From contig CBDVDR010000010.1 of the NCBI GenBank assembly GCA_965372795.1, positions 32,001 through 96,000 on the forward strand: a stretch of DNA of 64,000 nucleotides, given 5' to 3'. The stretch comes from an uncultured bacterium (GTDB taxonomy: Bacteria > Zixibacteria > MSB-5A5 > GN15 > FEB-12). The first letter of the stretch is position 1. Each line of letters starts with the position of its first letter. Positions 14,365 through 34,237 of the stretch are shown here, one piece after another. The notes below the pieces were generated by a model. The model saw only the letters and a list, made by a program, of their open reading frames with translations, was not told the origin of the DNA and searched no databases. The position numbers and the translations under genes are program-made.

Positions 14365-14691
14365 AAATGCGGGCTAGTTGGGATACATATCGAACCAACA
14401 TAGTTGGATTTATTTAAAAAAAATAGCATCATCAAAATGCCGTCAGGTCAAGCCATTTAAAATGGCGGGCCATCGTGGACTATTTTAGAACTGCGGCTTA
14501 AGTATAATTGATATAGTGAATTTTGAAATCAAGAATAATTTATTTGATTTCCAATTTAATCTCTTAGATTTTTGTCATTTTTTTCTTAAAATGTTTGAGA
14601 GGGGAATCGAAAGCATTGCCACTATAACTACTTGTGTAACATTGGATTATAATAATGCGGGCTATCGTGGACAATTTTGGAACTGCGGCAT
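14365..14691 (+). repeat. Three tandem att-like (attP'-type) half-sites at left island junction
   Basis: CGG cores at 14370, 14466, 14658, each followed by GC-n6-GGA-n8-GAAC; copies 2 and 3 identical at 30/33 nt; core matches TGCGG at the recombinase/tRNA junction (34151). Confidence 0.7.
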
Positions 14692-14754
14692 AGTAGATAA
14701 TTAATATAGACGAAAGCAACTCTTAATACTCTAAATTTGAATATGTTATCTGGA

Positions 14755-17700
14755 TTATCTAAAAGAAATCTCTTGTAGAAATTTCTTAACTGTTTGAGTA
14801 TGTGGATGTTTCTCACCAAAAACACTGAGAAGAATATCATAAGCTCTTTTCCACAGTTCCCTCGCTTTTTCAAGTTGACCCAAAGCTTGATATAACAAAG
14901 CTAAATTGGACTGACGTATTGCGACAGCGGGATGTCTGTCACCGTAGTTTTTAATATCTGTCTGCAAAACTTGTTCTAACAACTCTCTTGCTTTTTCATA
15001 TTCACCCAAATCTTTATATACCAAAGCTAAATTGGACTGACTTGATGCCATAGAAGGATGTTTGTCACCGAAGTTTTCAAAACTTGTTTGCAGAGCTAAT
15101 TCTAACAACTCTCTTGCTTTTTCATATTCACCCAAATCTCTATATACCAGCGCTAAATTGGACTGACGTATCGCAACAGTAGGATGCTTGTCACCATAAT
15201 TTTCGATATCAAGATGTAAGGCTTGTTCTAAAAGATCCCTTGCTTTTTCTAAATGACACAATTCTTGATATATTAAAGCCAAATTGAATTTATCTATTGC
15301 TACAGAAGGATGTTTTTCACCGGATATTTCTATTCCTGTACGTAAAGCTTGTTCTAATAACTCTCTTGCTTTTTCAAATTCACCCAAATCCTTATATATC
15401 ATCGCTAAATTGGACTGACTTGTTGCTACAGAAGAATGTTTTTCACCGTGTTTTTCAATATTTGTTTGCAAAGCTTGTTCTAACAACTCTCTTGCTTTTT
15501 CAAATTGACCCAACTCTATATATACCATAGCTAAATTGGACTGTAGACTTGCTGTTATATCAGTATGGTCACCCCTGAGTTGCTTTAAAAGAGCCTCACC
15601 AAAAGGAATGAAACGAAATTTATCTATTGGATTATCATTTGATTGTTCATAACTAAGTAGTCCTGCAACACTTTTGGAAAGAAGCTTCAAATCATCTATT
15701 GTAATATCCAGCCTAAAAATAAGTGCCTCAACCAGCACCGGGTGCATTTTGTAACTGTCGGTTTTATTATCCTTTAATACAAAACCTTGATCGCAAACAT
15801 TCTCAAGCATCCCCCCGAATTCATCACTCCAGTCAAGCTTATTCTTATCTAATAACCTTGATAAGAATTCAAAATCTATCCATTGATTAGGCAGGGCACT
15901 GAACTGTTTTAACAGATAAACTTCCTGCTCGCTAAGCCCGCTAATATCAAAAATACTCGTTATATATGATTTGATGCGATCAATTTTAGCAATTTTATTA
16001 ACATTATGTTTTACTTTAATCCCCGCTTTGGCATCTTTCGTGAAGGCACTTCTAACTGTTTCATATTTCCAGTGATTTCTGTGTGCCGACTTTGCCAGTA
16101 TTTCAATGGTAAGTGTGTGAAGCTCCACTCCCTTAACAATAGACCGTATTTCTTTAGTAGAAAAACTACTATGATATTTGTTAAATAATTCTATTGCTTC
16201 ATCTTCAGGAAGAAAATCCAAATCTATTATTTTGAAATTCTCGATACGTTCCCGCGATGTTACCAGAAGGTGCCATTCTGGTGCTTTAGGCAGCATGTCA
16301 AAATGTTCTGCCAGACTTTCATGAGCGTTATCTATTATAAGGAGTTTAGGTTTTTTACTTTGTAAAGTACGCAATTTATTCAAGCAGCTAATTAACGGTT
16401 CGCTCAGTTCTTCCTCTGCTATTTTTAAATTCTTTATAAGTGATGTATTTGCAATTATTGCTTCTTCCAAACTGTTCTCTATTGTCAGCAATACTATATG
16501 GTCATATTCATCATAAAACTCTGTCAGGTAGACAGCCGCTAAAGTTGTTTTACCAATTCCACCCATCCCATTAATAAGAGCCGTATCGTGGTTTTGCATA
16601 AGTGATTCACGCAGATTTTGCAAATCTATTTCTCTGCCCACAATATCTTTTTTGGGAATGCGTACCAATGCCGTAAGTTCTTTGGGATAAGAATTATCTG
16701 ACCCTGCAATAGCATCATCTAATTTATCAATAATTATCTTCGTATCTTTTTTAATTTCTGAAGTATCTACTTTTATTGCTTTTGAAAGATTGAACAGATC
16801 AAAAACATTATCTGAAATTGTAAATATTTCTTCTTGATAGTTTTCCCCAAAAGCGAGTTTTTTTAGTTCCTCATCTGCTTCGATATTTTTTTCAAAAATG
16901 TTAAAAAAATCGTGAATCTGCTCTTTTTCAGGTACTTTGATTTTGTCGTTATTTTTTAATTCAGACAAAATTATTTCATTTGTTTTATAACCTGCTTTAC
17001 AGAAAAAACGATGTTTTAAAAGTTCTACCAAAAATATCTTTGACTGATAGAACAAGAGCTTATCATCGAAATCGGCCACGGGATTTGCTCTGCTGTATTC
17101 TTCTATTGTATTGTCAATAATCTCTGTAAATATTGACTGAAGTTTATATCTATTCTCTTTTGTTATCCAGCCTATGCCTTTTTTTATACCATATGAAACA
17201 AATGTATTTGCTCCATTTTCTGAAAGTGTCATATAATTAGAGGATCGCTTACTATGAACTTCAGTATAATTTTCTGGGAAAACTGATAATTTCTCTTTCT
17301 GATTAACATTTAAATACAATTCATTGTACATTATATTTTTTGATTGATCATTGGTTGCTTTTAGAATTGTTTTTTCAATACGAGACAAATCATCAATCAA
17401 ATCATATACTCTAACCATTTCATAAGATTTAGGACATTGTAATTCTTTATAATTTTCTCTAAATCTCATCAAATCATCATATTTATAAAAAGTTGGTGAT
17501 TTAGATTTCAAACATACAACACATTTACAAGGTAAAAGTTTATTATATTTCAATCTGGAATAACTGTTATGTATTTCATCTAAAATAAATATAACTTCTG
17601 TATATAATTCTTTCCTACCATGCCCAGACACTTTGATTGACAATTCTCCCTTGCCCTGTTCTTCTATGATCTCAGCCCTATTTCCTTCACTCTCTAAGAC

Positions 17701-20193
17701 TACTCCTTCTCGCCATACTAATGCTTGATTCACTATGTAGTTATGCATACTGATTATAAATTGAGTTATGATCCCTTTTGGCATAAACTCATAAGAATAT
17801 TTCAACTGTAAATTATCTTGATAATTCCAATTATAATCTGGTTGTTCCCTACTTAATAACTGAGGTACAATATATTTTTTATCAGAAGAAGGAATTTCAT
17901 AACACAACATAAAATTCTTCATCAATTGCAACAACTCAAGATATTTATTATGTAATTTAGGTTCACTCCAAATCTCTTTAAGTTCGGCAAATGCAAAGTG
18001 TCCTTTGTTTGCTAATAAATACTTATGATCAAGAACTTTATACATAGTATTAATACACCATATAGGATTTAAAATAACAAACTCACTTAATATAGAGTCT
18101 TCTTGAAAATGGATAATAACACCAAGATCTTGTAAAAATTGACTGAAAAAAAGTTGATCTCTCTTTCCAGTTAAACCATTTTTATCACAGATAGTTAAAA
18201 ATTCATCTAAACTGATATAATTTCTATTATCACTATTCAATATCTCACGTACATTTTTCCAAGTTTTAGGTATAATAATTCCAATATGAGGAAGTTTTTG
18301 AATATTAGACTTGATTGCATTTATGATTTCTGATAAACCACGATTATTTTCTAAATTTGTTGAAAATGAGTTTTTGAAATTAGTAAACTCTTTATGAAGT
18401 ACAGATTCGTTGATATCTACTTTTCTATCACTCTTTTCATTCTTGATGATTAAAATCGGACTATCCGCACTGAATAATTTAATAGTATTCAACCAATAAT
18501 TAAGATCATTATCCTCATTCCGGCTATCAATCACAAGAAGAAATAGTGATCGATTGGTTAGAAAAAGCTGGTGAGTTTCATGATAAATCGGTTGGCCACC
18601 AAAGTCCCAAATATTAACACGTAATATCTCACCATCATCACTTTTAATAATCCATTTTAAATTGTTGATTCCTTTAGTAGGACTTTGATCTTGTTGTAAT
18701 ATCCAATCAGTATTTTCAATTTTTTTAGCAAGCGATGTTTTACCTACCCCTGCTTCCCCTAAGATAAATAAATTTGCTTCGTTTATATAATCAGATCCTG
18801 TTTCATTAAGTTGACGATAATACTCTTGAAGTGATTCTATTCCTTTAGATGCCACTTCATAAGGAGGATCTACAAGTAGATTATTCACGCAGTTAAATAC
18901 ACACAATGAATGAAGATTCACTATTTGTTCAGATATCTTTTCAATCGCATTGTGACTAATATCTAATTCTTTCATATTTGTTAATAAAAACAATGAATCT
19001 GGTAAAGTTTTTATTTTATTATTTGAACAATTTAAAGAAATAAGAGATTCTAATTTTTGTATTAAGTCTGGTATTCTTGTAATCAAATTATTACTAATAT
19101 TTAATGATCTTAGGTTTTTTAGTTGAAATATTTCTTTAGTTAATTCTTCTATGTTTGCATTACTTATATCTAATTCTATTATATTATTATGATTATCTGT
19201 TCTACATTTAACAAATCCCTTTCCTAACTTCTCCTCTAACACTTCAATTATTGATAAATCTTCTCCTGGCTTGCTCAAATTACATTCTTCAAATATGTAT
19301 TTTGTAAGATTGACTAATTCCTTCCCAACCATTCTTTTAGGATCTTTTTGGGGTGGTATTTCTTCTCCAAAACCATATTCAGGTTTATATGGAATTGACT
19401 GACTAATAATATATGTTAAAGCATCATTTTGATTCTCAACAGGTAAATAATCAAATAATTTTTCAGAGGCGTTCTGTTGCCATTTGATCAACAAATTTCC
19501 TTCTGCAGCTTGTTCAACTCTTGAAGGAAGAACAATAAGCTGAGGTGGATTTTTTTCTACTCGATAATTAGGTGAAATCTCATTTATATTATGAGCAATA
19601 TTTTTAATACCTTCTATATTTTGTTCATTTAGTGCAAACAACATTACGACTGCATCAGGTATTTGAATTGTACATATTCCACCTATATCAGTTGTGCCTG
19701 TTCGGCTGTCTATGAGACAAATATAATATTTCTTCTTTATTTCATTTTTTAAATACTCAATAAAATTGAAACCTTGCCAATTTTCGTATAGATCCTGCCA
19801 ATCAAAATCATTAACTTTTGAAGCATAATCGCTGTCAAATCTTCCACTTGGAAGTAAAGATATACTGCCCCCACCTTTAAATTTTTCTATATTTGGGAGA
19901 ACATACTTATCTAAGTTGATTAATTCATCTTCTTTAATAGGTTCATCACTTGTAAGTAATTTTTTATACTCATAAAATAAATCAATTAAACCAAAATCAA
20001 TATTATCATTTTTGATATCAAAAAAACGATGAATCCCAGGTGCTTCAAGATCCCAATCAATAACAAGTACATTTAAATTATAATCTTTAGCAAGTACCCA
20101 AGCTACACTTGCAAGAGACATACTTCGCCCTACTCCACCTTTATATGAATAAAATGTAAATATTTTTGAACTTTGCATTTTTAAACTAACCAT
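14755..20193 (-). CDS. ParA/MinD-like (KGGVGR) ATPase - LRR - Roc-COR GTPase - STAND/NB-ARC ATPase - TPR fusion, 1812 aa
   Basis: YSYKGGVGRS/IDWDLEAPG/IDSRTG; about 5 LRRs; GEAGVGKT/WDFGGQ Roc; COR; GMGGIGKT/LLIIDN/LVTSRE/MHPVL NB-ARC; six 42-aa TPRs. Confidence 0.9.
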   Translation of the reverse strand: MVSLKMQSSKIFTFYSYKGGVGRSMSLASVAWVLAKDYNLNVLVIDWDLEAPGIHRFFDIKNDNIDFGLIDLFYEYKKLLTSDEPIKEDELINLDKYVLPNIEKFKGGGSISLLPSGRFDSDYASKVNDFDWQDLYENWQGFNFIEYLKNEIKKKYYICLIDSRTGTTDIGGICTIQIPDAVVMLFALNEQNIEGIKNIAHNINEISPNYRVEKNPPQLIVLPSRVEQAAEGNLLIKWQQNASEKLFDYLPVENQNDALTYIISQSIPYKPEYGFGEEIPPQKDPKRMVGKELVNLTKYIFEECNLSKPGEDLSIIEVLEEKLGKGFVKCRTDNHNNIIELDISNANIEELTKEIFQLKNLRSLNISNNLITRIPDLIQKLESLISLNCSNNKIKTLPDSLFLLTNMKELDISHNAIEKISEQIVNLHSLCVFNCVNNLLVDPPYEVASKGIESLQEYYRQLNETGSDYINEANLFILGEAGVGKTSLAKKIENTDWILQQDQSPTKGINNLKWIIKSDDGEILRVNIWDFGGQPIYHETHQLFLTNRSLFLLVIDSRNEDNDLNYWLNTIKLFSADSPILIIKNEKSDRKVDINESVLHKEFTNFKNSFSTNLENNRGLSEIINAIKSNIQKLPHIGIIIPKTWKNVREILNSDNRNYISLDEFLTICDKNGLTGKRDQLFFSQFLQDLGVIIHFQEDSILSEFVILNPIWCINTMYKVLDHKYLLANKGHFAFAELKEIWSEPKLHNKYLELLQLMKNFMLCYEIPSSDKKYIVPQLLSREQPDYNWNYQDNLQLKYSYEFMPKGIITQFIISMHNYIVNQALVWREGVVLESEGNRAEIIEEQGKGELSIKVSGHGRKELYTEVIFILDEIHNSYSRLKYNKLLPCKCVVCLKSKSPTFYKYDDLMRFRENYKELQCPKSYEMVRVYDLIDDLSRIEKTILKATNDQSKNIMYNELYLNVNQKEKLSVFPENYTEVHSKRSSNYMTLSENGANTFVSYGIKKGIGWITKENRYKLQSIFTEIIDNTIEEYSRANPVADFDDKLLFYQSKIFLVELLKHRFFCKAGYKTNEIILSELKNNDKIKVPEKEQIHDFFNIFEKNIEADEELKKLAFGENYQEEIFTISDNVFDLFNLSKAIKVDTSEIKKDTKIIIDKLDDAIAGSDNSYPKELTALVRIPKKDIVGREIDLQNLRESLMQNHDTALINGMGGIGKTTLAAVYLTEFYDEYDHIVLLTIENSLEEAIIANTSLIKNLKIAEEELSEPLISCLNKLRTLQSKKPKLLIIDNAHESLAEHFDMLPKAPEWHLLVTSRERIENFKIIDLDFLPEDEAIELFNKYHSSFSTKEIRSIVKGVELHTLTIEILAKSAHRNHWKYETVRSAFTKDAKAGIKVKHNVNKIAKIDRIKSYITSIFDISGLSEQEVYLLKQFSALPNQWIDFEFLSRLLDKNKLDWSDEFGGMLENVCDQGFVLKDNKTDSYKMHPVLVEALIFRLDITIDDLKLLSKSVAGLLSYEQSNDNPIDKFRFIPFGEALLKQLRGDHTDITASLQSNLAMVYIELGQFEKARELLEQALQTNIEKHGEKHSSVATSQSNLAMIYKDLGEFEKARELLEQALRTGIEISGEKHPSVAIDKFNLALIYQELCHLEKARDLLEQALHLDIENYGDKHPTVAIRQSNLALVYRDLGEYEKARELLELALQTSFENFGDKHPSMASSQSNLALVYKDLGEYEKARELLEQVLQTDIKNYGDRHPAVAIRQSNLALLYQALGQLEKARELWKRAYDILLSVFGEKHPHTQTVKKFLQEISFR
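14790..15550 (-). repeat. 126-bp tandem TPR-coding repeats (6 units)
   Basis: CTAAATTGGACTG-type anchor recurs at about 14901, 15027, 15153, 15279, 15405, 15531. Confidence 0.9.
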
Positions 20194-20204
20194 AATTTCA
20201 TATC

Positions 20205-20870
20205 CTACCCAGGAGGACGAAGATTTTTGCTTTTAATCTCATTATGATTAAAGTATTTATCAGAAGTTTCCAACATTCTCACATTAGTAGGAGCATCTTT
20301 TCTATCCTTTAGATATTTATCTAATAGTGATAGCTCCATGAAGTTATGAAGATCATCCTCTCTTGTAACAATTCTACATTTCAACCCATTGAAATATTTT
20401 TTGGGAATTGATTCTAATTGTTGAGTATACAATTCATATAATGCTCCTTGAATGCCTGTAGGTTTTTTAGAACAGAATAAAAAACAAGAACAATGAGATT
20501 CAGAATCACAACAAGTATCAATAGTAGGTATTAGCTTTGAATACTTTTCATGAAGTAGAGCAAAATTATCAATTATATATAAGGATGCTCTTTCTAAAAA
20601 AGAAACACGATTACGATCATCATCAAAATCAACATCTTCATTTGCGCATATAAATTTATTTTCTTTTGATTTTAATATTTCTATTATAGATTTGTCAGAA
20701 AAAGGTTTCCAATCTTCTGATACATTTCCATAAAGAGTGTCCTTATTTCGATCAAGCCATATAGCTATTGACGATTTCCCCTTCCCCTTTAGTATTTCAC
20801 ACACTTCTGCAACTTCACTATGCCTAAGTGCAACAATAATGTAATTTAATGTCTTTTCAGTATTTTCCAT
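20205..20870 (-). CDS. Hypothetical protein resembling the FxsC C-terminal domain
   Basis: LYGNVSEDWKPF and YIIDNFALLHEKY recall FxsC motifs (from memory); directly upstream of the KGGVGR protein. Confidence 0.5.
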   Translation of the reverse strand: MENTEKTLNYIIVALRHSEVAEVCEILKGKGKSSIAIWLDRNKDTLYGNVSEDWKPFSDKSIIEILKSKENKFICANEDVDFDDDRNRVSFLERASLYIIDNFALLHEKYSKLIPTIDTCCDSESHCSCFLFCSKKPTGIQGALYELYTQQLESIPKKYFNGLKCRIVTREDDLHNFMELSLLDKYLKDRKDAPTNVRMLETSDKYFNHNEIKSKNLRPPG

Positions 20871-21702
20871 TACAAAGTCTATTTATAGATTCTAATTTTC
20901 CGATTACATCTTCTTGAGATCTCCTAAATTGATTATCTTCACTTAATTTTTTTATAGGGTAAAAATAGAAGCGCCATTTAATTTCAATATCATCGACACT
21001 ATCATAATTGAGAATCTTTTTAAAAATTTCAATCAAACCATTTAAATCTTCAAGTAATTTTGCAATATCATAATATAGTATTTTACTGTAATTATTTAAA
21101 TCTTCATTTTGTATATTTTCTATCGTCTTTAATGCTACTGAGTAAATCCCTGATAATTCATCTTTGTTAAATACATTATTAATGTTTGATTTTTTTATCT
21201 TTATAAGAAGGTGATTAACTTGCCTTGTAATTTGTAAAAAACTTGATGCGGGAAATGCAGGCAAACTATCTCTATATTTAATCAAAAAACTCAGAAATAA
21301 AGTAGATGGAATTAACAGTATAATTAAAATCTTAAATAATAATTCTGCCACTACTTCTAATAAACCTTGAAAAGATGTTAAACCAAAGATGTAGATATCT
21401 TCTTGAATACCTATATATCCACACATCAATAAATTTATAGTTAAAATAATAAACAACATTAACAAAGGTCTCATTATTTGACCTCTGAATGCAAAATAGC
21501 AATCCCTTTGAAAATGATTTATCAAAATATAGACAGTAAATAAAAAAATTATTGTAAAAGGAAGACTTAATGCAGGATTTAGATTGAATATCTCAATTTT
21601 TGAAATACCATAATAACTCATCATCACTGTTACAAGGCTAATTAAATATAGTCCCCACAACCGAAATCCTAAGTAGTAATCTAACGTAAGAAGTTTACCC
21701 AA
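20857..21702 (-). CDS. Membrane protein (about 4 N-terminal TM helices + helical soluble domain)
   Basis: Hydrophobic segments in first 140 aa; overlaps next ORF; TTG start uncertain. Confidence 0.7.
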   Translation of the reverse strand: MGKLLTLDYYLGFRLWGLYLISLVTVMMSYYGISKIEIFNLNPALSLPFTIIFLFTVYILINHFQRDCYFAFRGQIMRPLLMLFIILTINLLMCGYIGIQEDIYIFGLTSFQGLLEVVAELLFKILIILLIPSTLFLSFLIKYRDSLPAFPASSFLQITRQVNHLLIKIKKSNINNVFNKDELSGIYSVALKTIENIQNEDLNNYSKILYYDIAKLLEDLNGLIEIFKKILNYDSVDDIEIKWRFYFYPIKKLSEDNQFRRSQEDVIGKLESINRLCNGKY

Positions 21703-21915
21703 AGTATATCCCTGATTTCCTTTAAATAAAAATGAGTAATTTATTATTAACCTAAAATGGCATAATATGTCAATATATTAATAATTTTTAAAAACTGCAA
21801 TATTTACTAATTCTTATGTAAATCATGATAGATGCTGGTTAGTTGTATAGAAACGCACTCTAAGTCTCCCACAATTCTTAAGTAAACCTAATTCATATAG
21901 TATTTTTTATACTCG

Positions 21916-24318
21916 TCATATCACTGCCCTACTCTCATATAAAGATGCTTGGAAGCCTATGAATGTATCCCGAATTGAACTAATATCACCCAATTCTCGT
22001 TTCGCATCAGGAATCGCTTTGTATTTTAGAATCAATAGATCAGGAAGTTTCTTTACATCAAGCTCACTTACGCCAGATTCCACATACTGCTTTAAAACAA
22101 AATCCAAAAATATTCGCTGTTTGGATTCATAACCATCATAATGTGACTTTGCAAATTCCGCTCTTTGACTTCGTTTTACAGGATTGGTACTAAATGCCAC
22201 AAAAGACAACACATCATACAAATCACTATCTTCCGCATGAATCATTTGTTGTAAATCTTGTAATTGGTTTGGAGTAAAGCCATGCTCATTCAATTCTTGT
22301 AAGAGTTGTTTTCGAGTATCTGGGTTGCTCCAAATAGCACGTAATTCATCTTCATCCTTGAAAAAATCAGGCAAGGCATCAAACATTGACTTTAAAAATT
22401 CTTCTGCTGAGATAGGTTTCCCATCAGGACTCCAAAAAGATGTCTGCACCATAAAATCTAATTCACGTACTTTATTATCTGATAATTTAACTTTTATCAT
22501 CTTTCGAGGTGGCTGTTTATCACATTCACAAGGTGCTTTTCCGCAAAACTCACATCGTTCAGGTGGGTCAGTATCGCACACACAAGGTCTCTCACCACAT
22601 GTTTGGCATACTTTTGGAGGTTCGTCTACACAAATACATACAACCTTTCCGCATTTTTCACAGGGTAAAGCATCGCCATCCCATTCAGGATCAAAAAAAT
22701 GATAATGCGCTCCGACAAAATCATATATTGTAAAATAATCCTTACCCTCAAATAAGCGGGTTCCACGACCAATAATCTGCTTGAACTCGATCATCGAATT
22801 TACTTTACGCATGAGAATAATATTTTTAAGCTCAGGAGCATCTACACCGGTACTTAATTTCTGTGACGTTGTTAGAATCGTAGGGATGATTTTCTCGTTA
22901 TCCTGAAAATCCCGTAAATGCTGTTCACCCCGCTTGGCATCATCAGCTGTAACTCTATGGCAATAGTTAGGATTGGTGCTGACAGACTGTTGGTTGATCA
23001 AATTTCGAACCCCAAGAGCATGTAGCTGGGTGTCACAAAACACAATCGTCTTTTGGTTTTGATTCATCATTTCCAAAAACAGTTTTACCCTATACTTTTC
23101 CCGTTCCATTATTTCAATCACACGATTCATTTCATTCTCGGTGTAAATCTTTTCCTTATCAATCTTACCCTCTAATATTATATCATCAGAAGTATAGATA
23201 TAATCATCAACTGTCGTACGTATCTGCTTCACTCTAAATGGTGTCAGAAAACCGTCATTGATTCCTTCTTTGAGAGAATAAATATAGACAGGTTCACCGA
23301 AATACTTATAAGTATCAATATTCTTATCCCGCTTTGGAGTTGCCGTAAGACCTAACTGCACTGCGGGACTAAAATATTCCATAATCGCTCGCCAGGTGCT
23401 TTCATCATTGGCACCACCACGATGACACTCATCTATAACGATAAAATCAAAATAATCTTTTGGGTATTCTCCAAAGTATGGTTCGCCATTATCACCGCTC
23501 ATAAAGGTTTGGAAGATTGTAAAGAAAATAGAACCGTTGGTAGGCACTTTCCCTTTTTTACGAATATCGTCTGGGCGGATTCGCACCAAAGCATCTTCTT
23601 CAAAGGAAGAGAAAGCATTAAAAGCCTGGTCTGCTAAAATATTTCTATCTGCTAAAAACAATATACGAGGAAGCCGCTTACCATCTCTTCGTAAATTCCA
23701 TCTACTATGGAATAATTTCCAGGCAATCTGAAAAGCAATTGCGGTTTTTCCTGTTCCGGTAGCAAGAGTAAGCAGTATACGATTTTCACCTTTAGCAATA
23801 GCTTCCAATGCTTTTGTAATGGCATTTTCCTGATAGTAGCGAGGTTGCCAGGTGCCACCCCGATCTTCAAAGGGAACCGTATGTAATTTATCCCGCCATT
23901 CTCCTGCTTCTTTATTGATGCTATCTTCTTCGGCAAAGGTCATCGCCCACAATTCATCTGGTGATGGAAATTTATCTACATCCGCTTCTTTACCTTCCAG
24001 CATATCGATACCATAAATCTTCAACCCGTTACTGCTGTAAGTATAGCGTACCTGTAACCTGCCAGCATAATCTTTGGCTTGCCCAACCCCTTCGGTATAA
24101 GGTTTTTCATCAGACTTAGCTTCAATAACTGCAAGATTACGGTTTTTATATTGTAAGACATAGTCGGCAAAGTCAGGTTTACTTCGTTTCCCGTTTCCGA
24201 TTAAACGACCCTTTGAGATAGGGAACTCCATGCGGATACGAGATCCATCCACAACACCCCATCCTGCTTGTTTTAAGGCTGGGTCAATATAGGTTGCTTT
24301 AGTTTCCGCTTCGTTCAT
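21916..24318 (-). CDS. hsdR: Type I restriction enzyme R subunit (EcoAI/EcoEI-like)
   Basis: ADYVL..VIEAK nuclease motif, ATGTGKT, DECHRG, LTATP, QIIGRGTR, EcoEI-type C-terminus. Confidence 0.95.
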   Translation of the reverse strand: MNEAETKATYIDPALKQAGWGVVDGSRIRMEFPISKGRLIGNGKRSKPDFADYVLQYKNRNLAVIEAKSDEKPYTEGVGQAKDYAGRLQVRYTYSSNGLKIYGIDMLEGKEADVDKFPSPDELWAMTFAEEDSINKEAGEWRDKLHTVPFEDRGGTWQPRYYQENAITKALEAIAKGENRILLTLATGTGKTAIAFQIAWKLFHSRWNLRRDGKRLPRILFLADRNILADQAFNAFSSFEEDALVRIRPDDIRKKGKVPTNGSIFFTIFQTFMSGDNGEPYFGEYPKDYFDFIVIDECHRGGANDESTWRAIMEYFSPAVQLGLTATPKRDKNIDTYKYFGEPVYIYSLKEGINDGFLTPFRVKQIRTTVDDYIYTSDDIILEGKIDKEKIYTENEMNRVIEIMEREKYRVKLFLEMMNQNQKTIVFCDTQLHALGVRNLINQQSVSTNPNYCHRVTADDAKRGEQHLRDFQDNEKIIPTILTTSQKLSTGVDAPELKNIILMRKVNSMIEFKQIIGRGTRLFEGKDYFTIYDFVGAHYHFFDPEWDGDALPCEKCGKVVCICVDEPPKVCQTCGERPCVCDTDPPERCEFCGKAPCECDKQPPRKMIKVKLSDNKVRELDFMVQTSFWSPDGKPISAEEFLKSMFDALPDFFKDEDELRAIWSNPDTRKQLLQELNEHGFTPNQLQDLQQMIHAEDSDLYDVLSFVAFSTNPVKRSQRAEFAKSHYDGYESKQRIFLDFVLKQYVESGVSELDVKKLPDLLILKYKAIPDAKRELGDISSIRDTFIGFQASLYESRAVI

Positions 24319-24319
24319 G

Positions 24320-25213
24320 TTAAAATAAATCCATTAGTTCTTTTGCGGATATTAATTTCTCATAAGTAGTATATTTTATGCTTTGCATCAATCCTTTTGG
24401 TGCTTTGCTATATTCTAATGGTCCAATTGGTTTTGCTGGAGCCACAAAATTCAATCGATATTTCCCCCCATCACCATAAGGCTCAATCGATTCGACTTCA
24501 GCAAAATGAGTAACTGCAGATATTGGTGCGGTCTGATATACCGCTATATACTTAATTTCACCAAGTCTACCACCACCAATTCTAATTGCGTACCAACAGT
24601 GTTCCCTAAGAAATACTTCTTTGAATCCATCTTCTTGAGCGGGTACTACAATTGTATCCTGAATACTTTTTTCTTCAATCGGCAGATTAGGTACCACATC
24701 TATTTTCGTGGCTTTTTCAAATACTCTTATTTCAACCAATGGTAATATACTCAAAATTTCATTTAGAAATTCTTGTGTATCAGCCTTTTCAGACTCAGTA
24801 AGAATTGGTTCATTTGGTGTAGTTGAGTTGTTTAATTTACATCGACTTGCATTTTTTGCTTGTTGAATAAGTGCCCATTCAAGCCAAGTAATGTGCGCTC
24901 GGTTTAGACCACCATTGCTTGAAACGAATACCAGAACTTTGTTCCAAAATTTCTTATTCTTACTGTGATCTTCTATTCGTTTCTTAATTCCATCACCTTG
25001 CCCCACATAAATAGTTGGGAAGTCATCCTCTTCCTCATAGCCAGCTAAGATATAGATACCCGCTTCATCAAGCTCTTTTCTATTCTTATATTTATCCCAT
25101 GCTGCACGAGATATTTCCAGACCGATACCTGTCCAGTTCATCTTGGTAATCATCTTGAAATCTTGCGGGTCTCCATCGGGTACAAATAAACGAATAGTAT
25201 AAGGTTTAGCCAT
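24320..25213 (-). CDS. GIY-YIG nuclease-family protein (DUF4357-like N-terminus) with C-terminal beta domain
   Basis: AGIYIL...IYVGQG..RI..H, WLEWALI; probable start MAKPYTIRLF at 25213. Confidence 0.8.
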   Translation of the reverse strand: MAKPYTIRLFVPDGDPQDFKMITKMNWTGIGLEISRAAWDKYKNRKELDEAGIYILAGYEEEDDFPTIYVGQGDGIKKRIEDHSKNKKFWNKVLVFVSSNGGLNRAHITWLEWALIQQAKNASRCKLNNSTTPNEPILTESEKADTQEFLNEILSILPLVEIRVFEKATKIDVVPNLPIEEKSIQDTIVVPAQEDGFKEVFLREHCWYAIRIGGGRLGEIKYIAVYQTAPISAVTHFAEVESIEPYGDGGKYRLNFVAPAKPIGPLEYSKAPKGLMQSIKYTTYEKLISAKELMDLF

Positions 25214-25268
25214 GCGTCTTAATCCTTTCTTGTTTCCTAAGAGCCAATTGCTCTGGTTCCCGCATCGT

Positions 25269-25793
25269 TCATTTCGGCAATTTCCGATCGCCATTCACAC
25301 AGAGTATGGGGTTATGAGTTGTCAGTCTGAAATCTTTCCAGCGTATCTTTTTTGGTATTGGTAGTTCTATATTTAGATATTTCTCGTATGTGTTTCTCGC
25401 ACGAAGAAAAATCCATTCCGATTCAGCCAATTCGATTCCCATTGTTCTAACTTTGTCTCTTAACTTGGGAATGTGGGTTATCAAATACTGTTCGTTTGCC
25501 TGGTTATTTCTAATCCGTTTTGGTTCATCCAATATATCTATTAGGAAAATACCCTGCTGTTTTAGTTCAACCAAGAACTTGTCATACTCCTCTATTGATT
25601 CCGGTCGCTTGTCAAAATAGTGATTAAATATAGTAGAAGGTAAGCTCGTGTCATCTTCAATTTTCTTACCAATAGCAAGCTTTTGTGGAACATAAAAGAA
25701 TGTTCTCCCACTTGATGGCGGAGCTTCACCGATCAACAGAGTTTTAATCACTTCTGGTCTGTATTTATTCCTCTCTCGTTCGTAATCAATCAT
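25269..25793 (-). CDS. Hypothetical protein, uracil-DNA glycosylase-superfamily-like
   Basis: LLIGEAPP..G..FFY and IFLID resemble UDG-fold motifs. Confidence 0.5.
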   Translation of the reverse strand: MIDYERERNKYRPEVIKTLLIGEAPPSSGRTFFYVPQKLAIGKKIEDDTSLPSTIFNHYFDKRPESIEEYDKFLVELKQQGIFLIDILDEPKRIRNNQANEQYLITHIPKLRDKVRTMGIELAESEWIFLRARNTYEKYLNIELPIPKKIRWKDFRLTTHNPILCVNGDRKLPK

Positions 25794-25820
25794 ACAATTA
25801 TGATTTCCCCTCAGATAGTC

Positions 25821-26981
25821 TCATGCTACTGCTCCTTCTGCTGTGGTCAGTTCGCCGTTGAATGCTTTTTGCAGGATAGATTTTTTCAAATCGTCTAATG
25901 AATCTAATTCTTTTTCGTATTGAGATTCAAGGACTTCGGTTTGTTTTTTTAAAATTTCAAGTTTTTCAATAATTTTTAATTGTGCATTCACTTTAGGAAA
26001 TGAGATAAAATAATTTTCAATAAACTCTTTTGATACACGTTTATGACCAACAGCACCGGTCATTACCATTTTTCCTTCTACTCTAAACTGATCTCTCGAA
26101 AGAAAGTAAAAAAGAAAATCAGACTTAATATCACCTAATGATCGAAAGACGATATATTCACTTGAACCAAATCCAATCCCATTTACTAAGTTACGTGCCA
26201 CACCAAGTTTTCCATTTTCAAAACAAGGCGTTATTTTTGCCATTAAAACATCATCATCTGCAAAATACGTATAACTTCCTGCAACTTCATTTAATTTTTT
26301 TTGCTGAGCAATAGGGATGTCTTTTTGTAATACCTTTAAATCAGTCATTGGTAGAAATGTCACCATATCTGATTGATTTAGTTTATCTTTTGCTTCTTTT
26401 TTCGGTGGTTTAATGAGAAACACTTCCCCTAACTTCTTTTCCACCCAACCGTCACCTTTTTGGGTGAAGATTTGGTTCAGTTCGCTTTGGAAGAGGTCTT
26501 TAGTGTTTTGCAGGTTGCGTTCTACATTGGCTTTGGCTTTGTCGATTGCTTCAAAGCATCTGTCCAATATGGCAACAATGCGTTTCTGTTCAGGAAGAAG
26601 TGGGATTAAAGTTTCAATTGCATAAACATCATTCCTGTTAATTCCCGGTTTTACACCTTTGGCAAGAGCTGGAAGTTCAAGTAAAGACAGCAGGTGATAC
26701 AAGAAATTAAGATTCAGTTCAGTTTTGTCAAACTTGACAAAGTAGGTAACATCAAGCGGCCAGAACTTTTCTTCTGTATAGTTGATTTCACCTGCTGATC
26801 CTTTTCTTCCAACAATAATGCTTGGTTCATCTGAATAATACTCGTTGGTTCTATCCTTAACACCATTCGCACCATAGACTGGATACAATCCTTCCGATGT
26901 TCGTTTATCTTTTGAAAGAGGCTTCCCATACTCTAACGAGAGGATATCTCCAATCTTTTTGCTTTCCCAACTCTGTTTCAT
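25821..26981 (-). CDS. hsdS: Type I R-M specificity subunit
   Basis: Two TRDs, PEQKRIVAILD and LKKSILQKAFNGEL conserved helices. Confidence 0.95.
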   Translation of the reverse strand: MKQSWESKKIGDILSLEYGKPLSKDKRTSEGLYPVYGANGVKDRTNEYYSDEPSIIVGRKGSAGEINYTEEKFWPLDVTYFVKFDKTELNLNFLYHLLSLLELPALAKGVKPGINRNDVYAIETLIPLLPEQKRIVAILDRCFEAIDKAKANVERNLQNTKDLFQSELNQIFTQKGDGWVEKKLGEVFLIKPPKKEAKDKLNQSDMVTFLPMTDLKVLQKDIPIAQQKKLNEVAGSYTYFADDDVLMAKITPCFENGKLGVARNLVNGIGFGSSEYIVFRSLGDIKSDFLFYFLSRDQFRVEGKMVMTGAVGHKRVSKEFIENYFISFPKVNAQLKIIEKLEILKKQTEVLESQYEKELDSLDDLKKSILQKAFNGELTTAEGAVA

Positions 26982-28435
26982 AGCAACTCTTTAATACTTT
27001 CTAAAATCTCTTTGGTCTCGTTGTCCAGCGTTGCCATCTCAGTCAATATTTCCTTTGGACTTCGTAATGGTGCCTCTTCTGGTGTATTTGGGTTTTTCAC
27101 ACTTAGATCATAGGTTTCAGTGTTGATATTGGCAATATTCACGCTCCAACATCTTTCATTCTCCGGTTTACTCTTTTGCAGTTTTACAAACTCTGCCATA
27201 TCATTATCATTGAGCGGATTGGTCTTGCCCATATTGCGACCCGGATCAAGCTGGTAGTACCAAATCTTCTTGGTCGGTTCACCTTTGTTAAAAAACAGTA
27301 CTACCGTTTTCACACCTGCCCCTAAAAACGTCCCACCTGGCATATCTAAAATTGTATGCAGGTTACAGTTTTCCAGTAGATGTTTCCTCAGAGAGATAGA
27401 GGCATTGTCGGTATTGCTCAAGAATGTATTTTTGATAACTATCCCGGCACGACCGCCGGCTTTGAGGGTTTTGATAAAGTGCTGCAAAAACAGAAAAGCG
27501 GTCTCACTGGTTTTAATATTAAAATTCTGCTGAACTTCTTTGTGCTCTTTAGCACCAAAGGGTGGGTTTGCCATTATCACTTTGTATCTATCTTTTTCCT
27601 GAATATCCCGAATGTTCTCACTTAGAGTATTTGTGTGGCTAATATTGGGGGCCTCTATGCCATGAAGAATCATATTCATAATACCGATGATATACGCCAG
27701 ATTTTTCTTTTCCTTACCGTAGAAGGTTTTTTCCTGAAGAGTTTTTAAATCGGTAGTGGATAATGAATCTCTGTCCTTTGTCATATGAGCGAAGGCTTCA
27801 CACAGGAAGCCTGCTGAACCCACCGCACCATCATAGATGGTTTCCCCTATCTGTGGGTTTACAACCTCAATGATAGCCCTAATAAGTGGTCTGGGAGTGT
27901 AATACTGCCCGCCGTTACGCCCGGCATTACCCATATTCTTAATTTTACTCTCATAGAGATGCGAAAGCTCGTGCTTGTCTTTAGTCGTTCGAAATTGTAT
28001 TTCATCGATATGATCTATGATTTCACGGAGATTATAACCGCTTTGTATTTTGTTTTTGAGTTCAGAGAATATTTCACCAATTTTATATTCGATAGTTTTT
28101 GAATTGTCAGCCTTTTCTTTGAATTTTGAGAGATATGGGAAAAGTTTGCCGTTGACAAACTGAACCAAATCGGGACCACTCATAGCTTTGTGATGATCGA
28201 GTTTACCATCGGATGTTTTTGGCATCGCCCAGTTTGCCCAGCGGTATTCTTCATCTAATATGAAAGTGTATTTTTTACCCTTAAGTTCGGCTGAATCTTT
28301 CTTATCGAGTTCCAGATCATCCAGATACCGCAAAAACAAAATCCATGAGGTTTGCCCGATATAGTCTAACTCACTATCGGCACCAGCGTCTTTATAAAGG
28401 ACATCATCAATATTTTTAAAAGTCTGTTCAAACAT
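26978..28435 (-). CDS. hsdM: Type I R-M N6-adenine methyltransferase
   Basis: GQYYTPR, DGAVGSAGFL, ANPPF; ATG 28435 with AGGAG RBS; overlaps hsdS start. Confidence 0.95.
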   Translation of the reverse strand: MFEQTFKNIDDVLYKDAGADSELDYIGQTSWILFLRYLDDLELDKKDSAELKGKKYTFILDEEYRWANWAMPKTSDGKLDHHKAMSGPDLVQFVNGKLFPYLSKFKEKADNSKTIEYKIGEIFSELKNKIQSGYNLREIIDHIDEIQFRTTKDKHELSHLYESKIKNMGNAGRNGGQYYTPRPLIRAIIEVVNPQIGETIYDGAVGSAGFLCEAFAHMTKDRDSLSTTDLKTLQEKTFYGKEKKNLAYIIGIMNMILHGIEAPNISHTNTLSENIRDIQEKDRYKVIMANPPFGAKEHKEVQQNFNIKTSETAFLFLQHFIKTLKAGGRAGIVIKNTFLSNTDNASISLRKHLLENCNLHTILDMPGGTFLGAGVKTVVLFFNKGEPTKKIWYYQLDPGRNMGKTNPLNDNDMAEFVKLQKSKPENERCWSVNIANINTETYDLSVKNPNTPEEAPLRSPKEILTEMATLDNETKEILESIKELL

Positions 28436-28682
28436 TCGATGCAACTCCTAATAGCTTATGATATGATTACTGTCTGAATTATTTCACCCACAGCGTTCAA
28501 TTGTTTACATTTAATTAGATTTCGAGCCTTTCAAAGACCTTTCCCCTAAGTTGTTGTTACGTTTCAAATAATATGATAAATATATCATTGTATGTCAAAT
28601 GAATAAGAATACGATTGATTTTGAAGATTTACATGCCTATTTTTAAAATATTAAGTAAATAGATAAATTAACGGAGGATTTA

Positions 28683-29144
28683 GTGGGCTTGATTGATTCA
28701 AAGAAATTTGGTCTAAATCCAATAATTGATTCAAATACTAAAGTAATGATTTTGGGATCGTTACCTGGAGATGAATCTATTAGATTACAAGAATACTATG
28801 CTAACAATAATAATGACTTCTGGAAGTTAACCAGTCATGCTATTAGTGAAGATATTACTAAATTTAGCTATAAAGAAAAAATACAAAAACTATTAAAAAA
28901 CAATATTGGTTTGTGGGATGTTTTTAAATTAGCTAATCGACCAGGAAGCTTGGATTCAGATATAAATTATGAAGAAATTAACGATTTCAAATGGCTTAAG
29001 AATAATTATCCTAAAATTAAATTAATTTCCTTTAATGGCAAAAAAGCCGGAAAATATACGAGAGCTTTAAATGATATTGGCTATGAAACAATAGTCATCC
29101 CATCTTCAAGTTGTGCAAAAATAAAAATAAAAAATCGTGCATAA
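28683..29144 (+). CDS. DNA-deoxyinosine (hypoxanthine) glycosylase, UDG superfamily; possibly truncated at C-terminus
   Basis: ILGSLPG..S...YY...NDFW, GLWDV, FNGKKA, PSSS motifs. Confidence 0.85.
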   Translation: MGLIDSKKFGLNPIIDSNTKVMILGSLPGDESIRLQEYYANNNNDFWKLTSHAISEDITKFSYKEKIQKLLKNNIGLWDVFKLANRPGSLDSDINYEEINDFKWLKNNYPKIKLISFNGKKAGKYTRALNDIGYETIVIPSSSCAKIKIKNRA

Positions 29145-29210
29145 ATTTGGCAATCATCAATCAGTTTAATAAAATAATTTCTTAAAATCATAGATATCTT
29201 TAATTGAATC

Positions 29211-30587
29211 ATGGATGAGAAAAACAAAAACAAATCTTCCATAGCTGAATCTGAAAATTACAGACAAGTATACGCATATCTATTAGGTACAGGGGAATCA
29301 CCACTATCATCTGTTAAAAGTGTAGTTATTACTGCAAAACGATTTGATTTAAAGCTTAATATCACAGGTGAAAAAGGATCTGTTTATAATCGAATAATTA
29401 CGCTTCTGAAAAAAAATAAGTTGCAATTTACTGAAATAGAATATTCTCCGAAGATACGAAACAAACCGGATGAGTGGTATTGTGATACTGATAATACAAG
29501 TTTGCATATTTGGGTGCCAGAATCAAAACATCGTATTGCAGACATTGGACTTTTGGTTTCGTTTTATATTAATTATCATCTTACCAAACTTAGAGAGAAC
29601 GTAACTGATTTCCCAAAACCAAAAATTGACATCTTGTACTTATTACTATTAATGGAAATTTTCGCTGATACAAATGAAAAATCTTTGAGCAATAGATTGT
29701 TTAGAGATTTACTTAATTCTGAAAACAATTCTGTTATTTCTGTTTCAAACAATATAGATACTTACTACAACGAAATGCATGCTGTTAATGGCATAGCAAA
29801 AAATTTATCTGAGTACACTCTGTTATATCTTGGATTTACTTCAGATTATGACCTTATGAAAGAACTGATTGCTAATTCTCATTTAAAGGATCATCCTCTA
29901 AATAAAAATTTTAAGTCCTTCATATTACCTGATGTCAAATATGTCTGGTATCTTAAATCAAGCGAATGGGATGTAGATAGCCTTAGGCTGATTCTCCAAA
30001 ATTCAGTTTATCTCAACTCTATTAAGAATCAACAAATCCCCGAGAAACAGAAAGAATGTTTGGTCTTAAGACTCAAAGGATTACCGGAAGATAAAATAGC
30101 AGATCAGTTAGGATTCGAAACATTTGATGAATATCAAACTTGGCTCAATAAGAATCATCTTTCTATAACACCGTTACAAAAAGAGAATCAATATCAACTT
30201 TGGCTTGAAGCATGCGACTATTTTGAGATTGAGCCAGATCTTGTTGATGTAGGAATAGAAGATTCTTGTGCTATAGAAAATCCAATCCAATATGATACAG
30301 AGGGATCTTCCCCAAATTTTAGAATAGGTCTGGGATTTAGCTCATTTTTCATCGAAGGAAAAGGTTCTTTCTCTCTTACACCAAGACAATCTGATGTTTT
30401 AAGAATATTATATGAAGGATATTTAGATAAAACATATGACATACACCAAAGTATTATAATCCAAGAAGTTTATGGTGAGGTTTCTGAAACCAGCTTAAAA
30501 AAACTATTTGGTTATAATACTGTTTGGGATTTATTGATTGAACCTGGTAAACGAAAAGGCCAGTTTCGTTTAAAAGATCTATTCTAA
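29211..30587 (+). CDS. Hypothetical protein with internal HTH and C-terminal winged-HTH
   Basis: IPEKQKECLVLRLKGLPEDKIADQLG; LTPRQSDVLRIL...GQFRL. Confidence 0.55.
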   Translation: MDEKNKNKSSIAESENYRQVYAYLLGTGESPLSSVKSVVITAKRFDLKLNITGEKGSVYNRIITLLKKNKLQFTEIEYSPKIRNKPDEWYCDTDNTSLHIWVPESKHRIADIGLLVSFYINYHLTKLRENVTDFPKPKIDILYLLLLMEIFADTNEKSLSNRLFRDLLNSENNSVISVSNNIDTYYNEMHAVNGIAKNLSEYTLLYLGFTSDYDLMKELIANSHLKDHPLNKNFKSFILPDVKYVWYLKSSEWDVDSLRLILQNSVYLNSIKNQQIPEKQKECLVLRLKGLPEDKIADQLGFETFDEYQTWLNKNHLSITPLQKENQYQLWLEACDYFEIEPDLVDVGIEDSCAIENPIQYDTEGSSPNFRIGLGFSSFFIEGKGSFSLTPRQSDVLRILYEGYLDKTYDIHQSIIIQEVYGEVSETSLKKLFGYNTVWDLLIEPGKRKGQFRLKDLF

Positions 30588-30679
30588 ATAAGTAAATCAC
30601 CTACTAAACTCCCTTATTATTTTTAAAATCACTATATATACCCCCACTTAGCTCCCAATAACAATTCATTTATTGGAGC

Positions 30680-30892
30680 ATGCTATATAAGACAACTGAT
30701 AATCCAAGTAACAAAGAACAACAGACTGATAGAAGTGAGCATTGCATTGAGTCTAAGAAAATAATATTTCTTGGTAAGAAAATGACTACTAATGAATATC
30801 AGGAATCATGTCGTAATTTAGAAGAATTTTTTAAGATTCTCATAAAATGGCAAAAGAAGGAGGGTCTTAATGAAAAAGAAACGAACTTATGA
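30680..30892 (+). CDS. Small hypothetical protein of mobile module
   Basis: GGAG RBS, overlaps next ORF. Confidence 0.5.
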   Translation: MLYKTTDNPSNKEQQTDRSEHCIESKKIIFLGKKMTTNEYQESCRNLEEFFKILIKWQKKEGLNEKETNL

Positions 30893-31415
30893 TCTTCGAT
30901 TGATAAAAAAAAGACATTCCTACTCAACGTCTGAATTATCCAAAAAAATAAGTGTACACCCTCGAACAATTCAAGAATGGCGCAAACAAGGGATGAAACC
31001 AATTGAGATAAATAATAGAAATTTTTTATTTATGGGATATGATATAGTTAGATTCATTTCAGAAAAGCAGCAGAAGAGGAAGCAAAAATTAGAAGTAAAC
31101 GAATTTTTCTGCCCAAAATGTAAATCACCTCAAACTTCTACTTTAAATAATATAACTATATTAGTAACTAATAAAAAAATTGGAAAAGATAATCTCTCCA
31201 TCCACATAAAAGGTGTTTGCACAAAGTGCAGATGCATACTCACTCGTTTTTCTTCTAAAACAATGCTCAAAAACTCCTATTGGGGGCTGAAGTTAAAAGA
31301 AGGTCATGTAAGATTAAAGGGTTATCCACCATCTGCTTTAAACACTGACATCAAGCAGGAGATTTTAGACTCTTTAAAACTTATAAAAGAAACTGAGGGA
31401 AATAATGAAAACTAA
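30870..31415 (+). CDS. HTH DNA-binding (excisionase-like) protein with zinc ribbon
   Basis: YSTSELSKKISVHPRTIQEWRKQG; CPKC...CTKC. Confidence 0.75.
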   Translation: MKKKRTYDLRLIKKRHSYSTSELSKKISVHPRTIQEWRKQGMKPIEINNRNFLFMGYDIVRFISEKQQKRKQKLEVNEFFCPKCKSPQTSTLNNITILVTNKKIGKDNLSIHIKGVCTKCRCILTRFSSKTMLKNSYWGLKLKEGHVRLKGYPPSALNTDIKQEILDSLKLIKETEGNNEN

Positions 31416-32493: not shown

Positions 32494-32530
32494 TACTTGA
32501 CTGATGATATATTATGATATACTTTGAGGC

Positions 32531-32719
32531 ATGGATAATTTGTTAGAAAAACTTGAAGAATACCGGCTCGAACATCGCATTACTCAAAAGCAATTAGCTG
32601 AACTTCTTGGAGTTGCCTTTGTTACAGTAAGTCGTTGGCTGAATGGGCATACGAAACCGAATAAGATTCAAACATTTCACATTAAAAAGCTTTTATCTAA
32701 AAAGGTAAAAAAACGATGA
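32531..32719 (+). CDS. XRE/Cro-family HTH regulator
   Basis: ITQKQLAELLGVAFVTVSRWLNG; ATGA-coupled to recombinase. Confidence 0.92.
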   Translation: MDNLLEKLEEYRLEHRITQKQLAELLGVAFVTVSRWLNGHTKPNKIQTFHIKKLLSKKVKKR

Positions 32720-34164: not shown

Positions 34165-34237
34165 GATTCGAACCCACGGTACCTTGCGGCACAACGGTTT
34201 TCAAGACCGCCGCTTTCGACCACTCAGCCACTCCTCC
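34153..34237 (-). tRNA. tRNA-Ser(TGA)
   Basis: Minus strand GGAGGAGTGGCTGAGTGGTCGAAAGCGGCGGTCTTGAAAACCGTTGTGCCGCAAGGTACCGTGGGTTCGAATCCTACCTCCTCCG; long variable arm; CCA not encoded. Confidence 0.97.

Follow-up and report, generated by a model that had tools for sequence, protein, structure and literature searches.

Tandem attP'-type half-sites, probably of a tRNA-directed large serine recombinase, at the far end of a tRNA-Ser island

The window (the whole stretch of DNA analysed, 64,000 nucleotides) contains three short sites, starting at 14369, 14465 and 14657, which are very probably P' half-sites of a clade of large serine recombinases (LSR) by which phages and islands are inserted at the 3' ends of tRNA and tmRNA genes; sites 1 and 2 would mark earlier units, since pushed outward. 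The geometry of the sites is fixed and specific genome-wide, and the sites are linked with LSR islands and with tRNA genes. The main features are the following.

34152-34237, minus strand: tRNA-Ser(UGA) gene (anticodon tga), the sole tRNA gene in the window and the proposed integration target
14657..34151, strand not given: low-GC island, 19.5 kb
32716-34164, plus strand: LSR gene, 482 aa (Pfam Resolvase, Recombinase and Zn_ribbon_recom)
14369..14395, plus strand: site 1, P'-type half-site, type 1 (GCGGGCTAGTTGGGATACATATCGAAC)
14465..14491, plus strand: site 2, P'-type half-site, type 2/3 (GCGGGCCATCGTGGACTATTTTAGAAC)
14657..14693, plus strand: site 3, proposed P' half-site of the resident island (GCGGGCTATCGTGGACAATTTTGGAAC)
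34122..34151, plus strand: proposed P arm, the left half of the present attR, from the 3' end of the LSR coding sequence
34152..34173, plus strand: proposed B' half-site, the acceptor 3' strand and T arm of tRNA-Ser (GCGGAGGAGGTAGGATTCGAAC)

Geometry of the Sites

All three sites, which have the same orientation, read GCGG-N8-GGA-N8-GAAC, and the tRNA-Ser arm, which starts at 34152, reads GCGG-N8-GGA-N3-GAAC. In the sites, CGG is found at 14370-72, 14466-68 and 14658-60, with spacings of 96 and 192 bp, GGA at 14381-83, 14477-79 and 14669-71, and GAAC at 14392-95, 14488-91 and 14680-83, 19 nt after CGG. The tRNA-Ser arm has CGG at 34153-55, GGA at 34164-66, with the same offset as in the sites, and GAAC at 34170-73, 14 nt after CGG, which is five closer. 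Counted from the G of GCGG, the offsets of GGA and GAAC are +13 and +24 at the three sites, +13 and +19 in the tRNA. A preliminary description of this DNA had already given the cores (14370, 14466 and 14658), their 96 and 192 bp spacing, the GGA and GAAC offsets and the 5 nt difference with the tRNA arm, and every one of these coordinates is exact. It had also pointed out that site 3 and the LSR end share the string ACTACTTG-N20-ATGCGG, which is indeed found at 14627-14660 and at 34122-34155.

The sites are no copies of the tRNA arm, with which they have few bases in common besides GCGG, GGA and GAAC. Over 43 nt, site 2 is 84% like site 3, and site 1 is a second sequence type: the identical +5 spacing is found in two unrelated types of sequence. 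The P arm of the element in the window has no GTTC at the mirrored place, hence P and P' are not mirror images of each other; a mirrored GTTCTA is present in one viral lineage. Pseudo-palindromic symmetry of att sites is usual among serine integrases, it is not obligatory.

Abundance and Distribution of the Motif

When up to three mismatches are allowed, GCGGGCYATCGTGGAC has three matches in the window, compared with 0.14 expected. We have scanned the 3.35-Mb genome for GCGG-N8-GGA-Nx-GAAC with different spacings. There are 11 matches at x = 8, all of them members of one repeat family, and eight at x = 3, which correspond to five tRNA-Ser/SeC ends, one truncated tRNA-Ser fragment and two unrelated sequences; each of the eleven other spacings tried gives 0-3 matches. 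Since the counts are concentrated at x = 8 and x = 3, the spacing of the repeat goes beyond chance. Tandem Repeats Finder detects no tandem repeat over the array region and no Rfam family covers it, so the fact that 192 is twice 96 does not come from a hidden tandem repeat.

Besides site 1, type-1 sites are found at C4:15564 (the far end of the LSR island of contig C4), four times on contig C3 and once on C13, and relatives have ten of them in eight genomes. The strict P' pattern has 44 matches in 107 genomes from this family, versus 14 for the reversed control. Eighteen of the 44 plainly belong to the two sequence types of the window, and four more form a third type. This third P'-spaced type, GCGGG(T/C)GGGATCGGATTCGATTGGAAC, is found in G100, G101, G103 and G105 (for example, L105 1433), all of one genus. 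An LSR is found in 10 of the 14 relatives with a strict-pattern P' and in 39 of the 93 without it, numbers which include kin and are not independent; across relatives, the presence of the LSR and that of the strict-pattern P' appear to be linked only loosely.

The LSR Gene and Its Product

The final 13 nt of the LSR gene, stop codon included, fall within the tRNA-Ser gene. Its product has the catalytic resolvase, recombinase and zinc-ribbon domains of a large serine recombinase (PF00239, PF07508 and PF13408 in Pfam). In an AlphaFold model, made from a 12-sequence alignment (pLDDT 83), the zinc-ribbon strands are followed by long paired helices (331-378 and 384-410), as expected of a coiled-coil insert. 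With this model, Foldseek finds the full-length SPbeta, Bxb1 and PhiC31 integrases, and also the LI integrase-DNA complex, with E values from 1e-21 to 1e-14; a sequence search of solved structures with the LSR reached catalytic domains only. R8, V9, S10 and S11 are invariant across the 12 aligned relatives, and by analogy we take S10 to be the nucleophile.

The LSR reading frame crosses the att core (34150-34164 and 14655-14693), and integrated copies continue into antisense tRNA, so integration would swap the C-terminus of the enzyme. When the gene end (ORF 32716-34164) is joined to site 3, the frame continues for 12 codons up to a TAG at 14691-14693. The integrated tail ends in ...MRRR, the tail predicted for the free form in ...MRAIVDNFGTAA. 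Free viral copies of the LSR encode a conserved extra tail which ends in ...AA.

LSR Islands in This Genome and in Relatives

There are four LSR genes in the genome, each of which terminates at, or no more than about 70 nt from, the 3' end of an opposite-strand tRNA. The tRNAs are Ser-tga, Ser-gct, Asp and Asn. On the island side of the four LSRs, P'-spaced sites in matching orientation are found at 9.5, 12.4, 19 and 19.5 kb. All junctions have the form A/T-rich|GCGG, where GCGG continues into the tRNA on the tRNA side and as GCGGGC... on the far side. The site on contig C7 (Asn) is situated past ordinary-looking chromosomal genes (transporters, regulators), an arrangement which suggests that it may belong to another element and not be the end of the one carrying the C7 LSR. 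Rolling-circle-type Rep genes (REP_ORF2-G2P/Rep_1) are found in two of the other LSR islands, at C4:22352-23302 and C7:37613-38458, and the C7 island also has Thoeris-like TIR genes.

In genomes of the same family, eight P' sites at seven loci lie 89 bp to 25 kb from tRNA 3' ends, with the right orientation; the tRNAs are tRNA-Ser (tga, gct, cga) or tRNA-Gln. At one additional locus the tRNA has the wrong orientation, and eight P' stretches, mostly at contig ends, have no tRNA. A co-linear arrangement P'...LSR|tRNA is found in G094 (13 kb, tRNA-Ser tga, with an LSR at 63% identity), G114 (23 kb, tRNA-Gln), G044 and G077, and G001 has an arm homologous to the P arm at 34122..34151. Type 2/3 sites go with the closest relatives of the LSR (G094, G099, G118 and G114). 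The P' of G114 starts with GCTGG, as does tRNA-Gln, in place of GCGGG: the core co-varies with the target.

A species-level genome collection has 27 related LSR loci, 23 of which were examined, the four with partial LSR matches being omitted. A convergent tRNA (Gln, Asp, Arg, Pro, Asn, Ile or Ala) is found within 400 nt of the LSR end in 19 of these 23 loci, which belong to several other phyla. A scan for far ends with G[AG]-N8-GAAC, over 10 kb upstream of 21 LSR loci of other phyla, gave nothing convincing; by itself the motif is too weak for such a scan, and some islands may exceed the flank which was fetched.

Viral contigs gave no matches in a scan with the single protein, and 51 loci in a scan based on the alignment, 38 of which were examined. 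In integrated viral loci, the LSR gene is followed by a tRNA or tmRNA-like end. In free loci, the LSR frame traverses the site and stops 25-45 codons later. We have compared five lineage groups with a common left arm, grouped by eye among the 38 loci. In 10 of 10 free forms, the distance between the common left arm and GAAC exceeds that in the six integrated relatives by 5 nt (27 versus 22, or 24 versus 19). The attP of these unintegrated relatives lies beside the LSR gene, whose end runs into the P'-spaced arm; this shows directly that, before integration, the end of the LSR gene and the P'-spaced arm are contiguous. The comparison also shows that the entire LSR clade has the 5-bp shift. The preliminary description had interpreted the three sites as attP'-like half-sites 5 bp out of register. 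That interpretation is borne out by the presence of such sites at the distal ends of further LSR islands, both in this genome and in relatives, and by the unintegrated viral forms.

Proposed Mechanism

In an element which is free and circular, attP would be formed by the P arm, which is the 3' end of the LSR gene, and the P' arm joined to it, and in the attB target the acceptor and T-arm of the tRNA would serve as B' arm. GCGG and GGA, placed alike in both arms, are presumed contacts of the recombinase domain. The zinc ribbon would presumably contact (T)NGAAC, which is present in both arms and situated 5 bp further out in P', and this offset would be the feature that distinguishes attP from attB. 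Strand exchange would take place within or beside the common GCGG, probably at GG (tRNA positions 71-72). After integration, the junction beside the tRNA (34151|34152) would be P|B', and that on the other side of the element flank|P'. Site 3 would then be the P' arm of the resident 19.5-kb island, and sites 1 and 2 the P' arms of two older units, now 96 and 192 bp, which were pushed outward by later elements inserted beside the tRNA. From the sequences we infer where the protein makes its contacts and where exactly the crossover takes place, in what order the events occurred, and that an occupied P|B' junction can be used again as a target.

The zinc-ribbon motif is placed at half-site positions 16-24 in attP and 11-19 in attB in the accessible text of Rutherford et al. 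(PMC3783163). If the crossover is set at GG, the GAAC motif ends at position 24 in P' and at 19 in B'. GG is the only non-palindromic dinucleotide in the shared GCGG core. Both junctions have only GCGG in common (GCTGG in the tRNA-Gln element).

Canonical serine integrases recombine attP with attB only, they do not use their own attR with attP. The stacking of elements thus needs a left arm which is either unimportant or heterologous. At both kinds of junction, the left arm is no more than A/T-rich sequence, and the requirement for a left arm could possibly be weak or absent.

Mini Units

The intervals between the sites have their own structure.

14369..14464, plus strand: mini unit 1, 96 bp, with a type-1 P' arm, a small hairpin CCAACATAGTTGG and the right end GCCATTTAAAATG
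14465..14656, plus strand: mini unit 2, 192 bp, with a left end like the C7 site and, as right end, an apparent P-arm remnant (14598-14656)

Unit 1 has copies with 85-90% identity at C3:82293-82191, C3:83369-83270 and C13:49951-50048. At all these loci the P' start and the right end (GCCATTTAWAATG) are identical in kind. In addition, units of 90-170 bp with a type-1 P' directly abut tRNA-Ser or tRNA-Gln in G057, G111, G117 and contig C1 of the genome itself. There are two loci in G111, and in G057 two such units are found in tandem, 107 bp apart; G099 has two type-2/3 P' sites, 91 bp apart. In unit 1 there is a terminator-like hairpin at 14395-14407, and the units contain short hairpins, such as CATAC-GAA-GTATG and GCCATTT-AAAATGGC.

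In unit 2, the sequence 14461-14520 is 92% identical over 60 nt to C7:53006-52947. Its right end resembles the last ~55 nt of the LSR gene, and recurs at C10:21803-21860, outside the window, and in G058 (C92), joined to a P' in each case. A left end like that of C7 and a right end like an LSR tail are what is expected of an internally deleted element. Both intervals are recurrent mini units without a recombinase and with defined ends, which agrees with the earlier suggestion that they are either deleted remnants or minimal non-autonomous elements. It had also been proposed that joining site 2 to the tRNA would give it an encoded CCA. The arithmetic is correct, and the form ...ATG|GCGG, which encodes CCA, is found at tRNA-Ser(tga) in six of the 11 loci of relatives and at the three closest LSR junctions (G118, G094 and G099).

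The neighbours of unit 1 are unlike on both sides from one locus to another, and the breaks are exactly at GCGG, which fits site-specific joining at each junction. This argues against another origin of the array, in which the sites would still be P' arms of the LSR, and yet the array would not be a local record of three insertions: it would have come as a block, or been built by recombination between arrays. For example, an element excising from the outer site could have carried the inner scars along. Such an origin would account for unit 1 being present at four loci with partly shared flanks. The left flank of the C13 copy is also found at C3:82293, and the right one at C3:83369, which shows that shuffling or copying between arrays does occur. 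It would also agree with the further P-arm|P' joint located 24.5 kb to the left, at C10:21861, and it would avoid the problem that canonical LSRs are unable to use an occupied junction. On the other hand, tandem mini units are found independently in G057 and G099. We consider import as a block or shuffling between arrays, although it agrees with the same identity of the sites, rather unlikely, and successive insertions beside tRNA-Ser, with the older units pushed outward, likely but unproven.

The joint on the left is part of C10:21803-21886 (10 kb left of the window start; L030 about 9800-9890), where a P arm like that of site 3 is joined to a degenerate type-1 P'. The stack at tRNA-Ser may once have reached 44 kb, in which case it spanned all of the window from 1 to 14368.

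Empty Sites and Junctions

That at least three integrations followed one another at this tRNA, as the preliminary description had proposed, remains inferred, since no empty-site allele, circle junction or polymorphism was obtained. No empty-site allele was found among the 41 genomes searched. The left flank (13300-14366) has matches in only three of 40 relatives, none of them with a tRNA nearby, and the right flank matches relatives only through the tRNA itself. In the 11 tRNA-Ser(tga) loci of relatives, the downstream flanks are unrelated and two of them are LSR ends. No empty allele emerged from these comparisons. In three public metagenome runs (each with 0.05 of sampled words), none of which contains this genome, no contig has a joint at any site. 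The contigs cover 13000-14312, where they are related to the neighbouring gene, and also include a short P'-like stretch at about 14414-14514; they speak neither for nor against excision.

This neighbouring gene, just left of site 1, is a 449-aa ORF (12730-14277) with no Pfam match. Its DNA is 89% identical to G035, which is from another family, and 79% to G028, and contigs from marine and cold-seep metagenomes match it at about 85-95%. The ORF has likely moved horizontally itself.

Contents of the Island

The GC content of the island is 0.26-0.39 (14.7-34.15 kb), compared with 0.38 for the whole genome. The island contains a ROCO/NB-ARC/TPR protein, a type I restriction-modification system, a UDG-like gene, a tyrosine recombinase and HTH proteins, with the LSR at its right edge. 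The largest item is a protein of 1812 aa (14755-20193, minus strand), with ParA/MinD-like ATPase, LRR, Roc-COR (ROCO), NB-ARC and TPR domains; it adjoins the type I restriction-modification system and looks defence-like. Immediately 5' of the LSR, the region 30870-32719 codes for a MerR-like HTH protein, a 362-aa tyrosine recombinase and a small HTH_3 protein.

In a classical tRNA island of a tyrosine integrase, the integrase lies beside the tRNA and a displaced copy of the tRNA 3' end is found at the far end. We have rejected this arrangement for the island in the window: there is no displaced tRNA copy, and the gene adjoining the tRNA is the LSR. The tyrosine recombinase (PF00589) is located at 31405-32493, 1.7 kb inward from the tRNA, and the genome spacing scan finds no N3-spaced copy of the tRNA at 14.3-14.7 kb.

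A related explanation takes the repeats as degenerate copies of the tRNA 3' end, left by islands of tyrosine integrases such as the one at 31405-32493. The presence of this recombinase in the island agrees with such an origin, as does the fact that other places in the genome (C13:50049, C13:40303 and C1:68303) have genuine truncated pieces of tRNA 3' ends, 18-22 bp in length. The sites, however, resemble the tRNA arm in GCGG, GGA and GAAC and little else, and two unrelated sequence types keep the +5 spacing. Furthermore, of the four LSR islands only that of the window has a tyrosine recombinase, the other three lack one, and in the free viral relatives the end of the LSR gene is joined directly to the P'-spaced arm. 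A tyrosine-integrase origin is therefore very improbable. Less probable still is the idea of a dispersed intergenic repeat (terminator or REP/MITE-like) with no role in recombination and a coincidental spacing. The terminator-like hairpin of unit 1 and the short hairpins of the units would suit it, but the motif, although dispersed, is tied to tRNA 3' ends and LSR islands, in contrast to the unrelated repeat that the preliminary description had considered fatal to its proposal. Here as in the related genomes, the place of the motif and the way it points with respect to LSR genes and the 3' ends of tRNAs speak against an unrelated repeat, as does the bimodal N3/N8 spacing.

Truncated tRNA 3' fragments of 18-22 bp with N3 spacing are also found at C3:83270 and in G118 (C275). 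The fragments adjoin P-type ends, and a CCATGCGGYAT-like sequence follows three of them. They are probably the end of another family of elements, which would recombine in the T-loop.

A Possible Platform at tRNA Genes

Contig C3 has a further array, at C3:79000-83400 (L026 8000-12400): mostly single-gene units are found between type-1 P' sites, which are situated at 83369, 82293, 80397 and 80306. The genes are a nitroreductase, a DUF2200 protein and a zinc-ADH, the latter two sharing one 1.9-kb interval, and an ORF of 151 aa with no known function. The array has no recombinase, it lies 8-12 kb from tRNA-Ser(gga), and its layout is integron-like. An integron has an IntI-type tyrosine recombinase, an attI site and hairpin attC sites between its cassettes. 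The resemblance is one of layout in the C3 array; the window island gives only a generic PF00589 match.

A broader proposal, which we put forward as tentative and somewhat doubtful, is that the LSRs run an open-ended, integron-like platform at tRNA genes, where the right arm alone would set the identity of a site, junctions would be reused and units would be moved in trans. The tRNA-like right arm would be the target and its +5-bp mimic the donor. If any A/T-rich left arm were tolerated, the junction formed by an insertion would again be a target. Units without a recombinase, from minis of 96 bp to single-gene cassettes like those of C3, would be movable in trans, and the swap of the C-terminal tail on integration might add to directionality.

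Comparison with Known Systems

The enzyme family and the 5-bp rule for attP and attB are already established. In the literature searched, with subscription journals outside, we have found no description of a P' arm which mimics a tRNA with a 5-bp shift, of 96-192-bp units without a recombinase bounded by P' arms, or of the reuse of an occupied tRNA by an LSR. Serine integrases are main tools for the insertion of large DNA, and their natural targets are usually protein-coding genes, with one site each. A widespread clade aimed at conserved tRNA ends would have its landing sites already in place in many organisms. The donor arm of this clade, which resembles a tRNA lengthened by 5 bp, would be a natural test of the structural model of attP and attB, replicated many times. 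Such a clade would also explain islands of accessory and defence genes, poor in recombinases, which are stacked at tRNA genes.

The phage-type large serine integrases (Listeria A118/LI, Bxb1, PhiC31 and SPbeta) have the same set of domains and a similar fold. As in our case, their att sites are short and lie beside the integrase gene, only a few bases are common at the crossover, and the zinc-ribbon motif of attP is 5 bp further from it, according to the accessible part of PMC3783163. There are also clear differences: Their target is a protein-coding gene, while here it is the 3' end of a tRNA or tmRNA gene and the P' arm imitates the tRNA acceptor and T-arm. In addition, the LSR frame crosses attP here, so that integration would swap the C-terminal tail, the left arms have little or no symmetry, and several P' arms are found in tandem.

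The closest published precedent, to the extent that the available text of PMC3146451 covers them, are the ssrA islands of Dehalococcoides, with the CcrB-like serine recombinase DsiB. In them, too, islands with a serine recombinase are found in tandem downstream of a tRNA-like gene, and the 3' end of the recombinase gene overlaps the 3' end of the target, as does the LSR stop inside the tRNA. Some of these islands have no integration module, and that text reads them as cis-mobilizable and gained by accretion (PMC3146451). On the other hand, their boundaries are 20-bp direct repeats of the ssrA end, in place of non-identical P' arms with a +5-bp shift, the insertion is placed in the T-loop, and the module described there includes a second, small serine recombinase, DsiA (PMC3146451). 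Pfam finds no second protein with a resolvase domain in the window island. Units which shrink to 96-192 bp are a further difference with the Dehalococcoides islands as described in that text, and the likeness is one of layout.

A review of integrative mobilizable elements (IMEs) states, in the sections available, that the characterised serine-recombinase IMEs disrupt dispensable genes and that tyrosine recombinases use tRNA 3' ends (PMC5704250). Among the tycheposon-like elements, 910 of 937 have a tyrosine recombinase and 27 an LSR, whose sites are not analysed in the accessible text of that study (bioRxiv 10.1101/2020.12.28.424599). Tycheposons, and the accretion of islands at tRNA genes in general, are nevertheless similar to what we propose: new arrivals at the tRNA push the older elements outward, as set out in the same text (bioRxiv 10.1101/2020.12.28.424599). 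In CIME-type elements, as here, remnants and units without a recombinase, bounded by att sites, accumulate, according to the available sections of the review (PMC5704250). The difference lies in what is left behind: In the tycheposon and CIME systems, as far as these sources describe them, partial copies of the tRNA, and in the array of the window, shifted half-sites.
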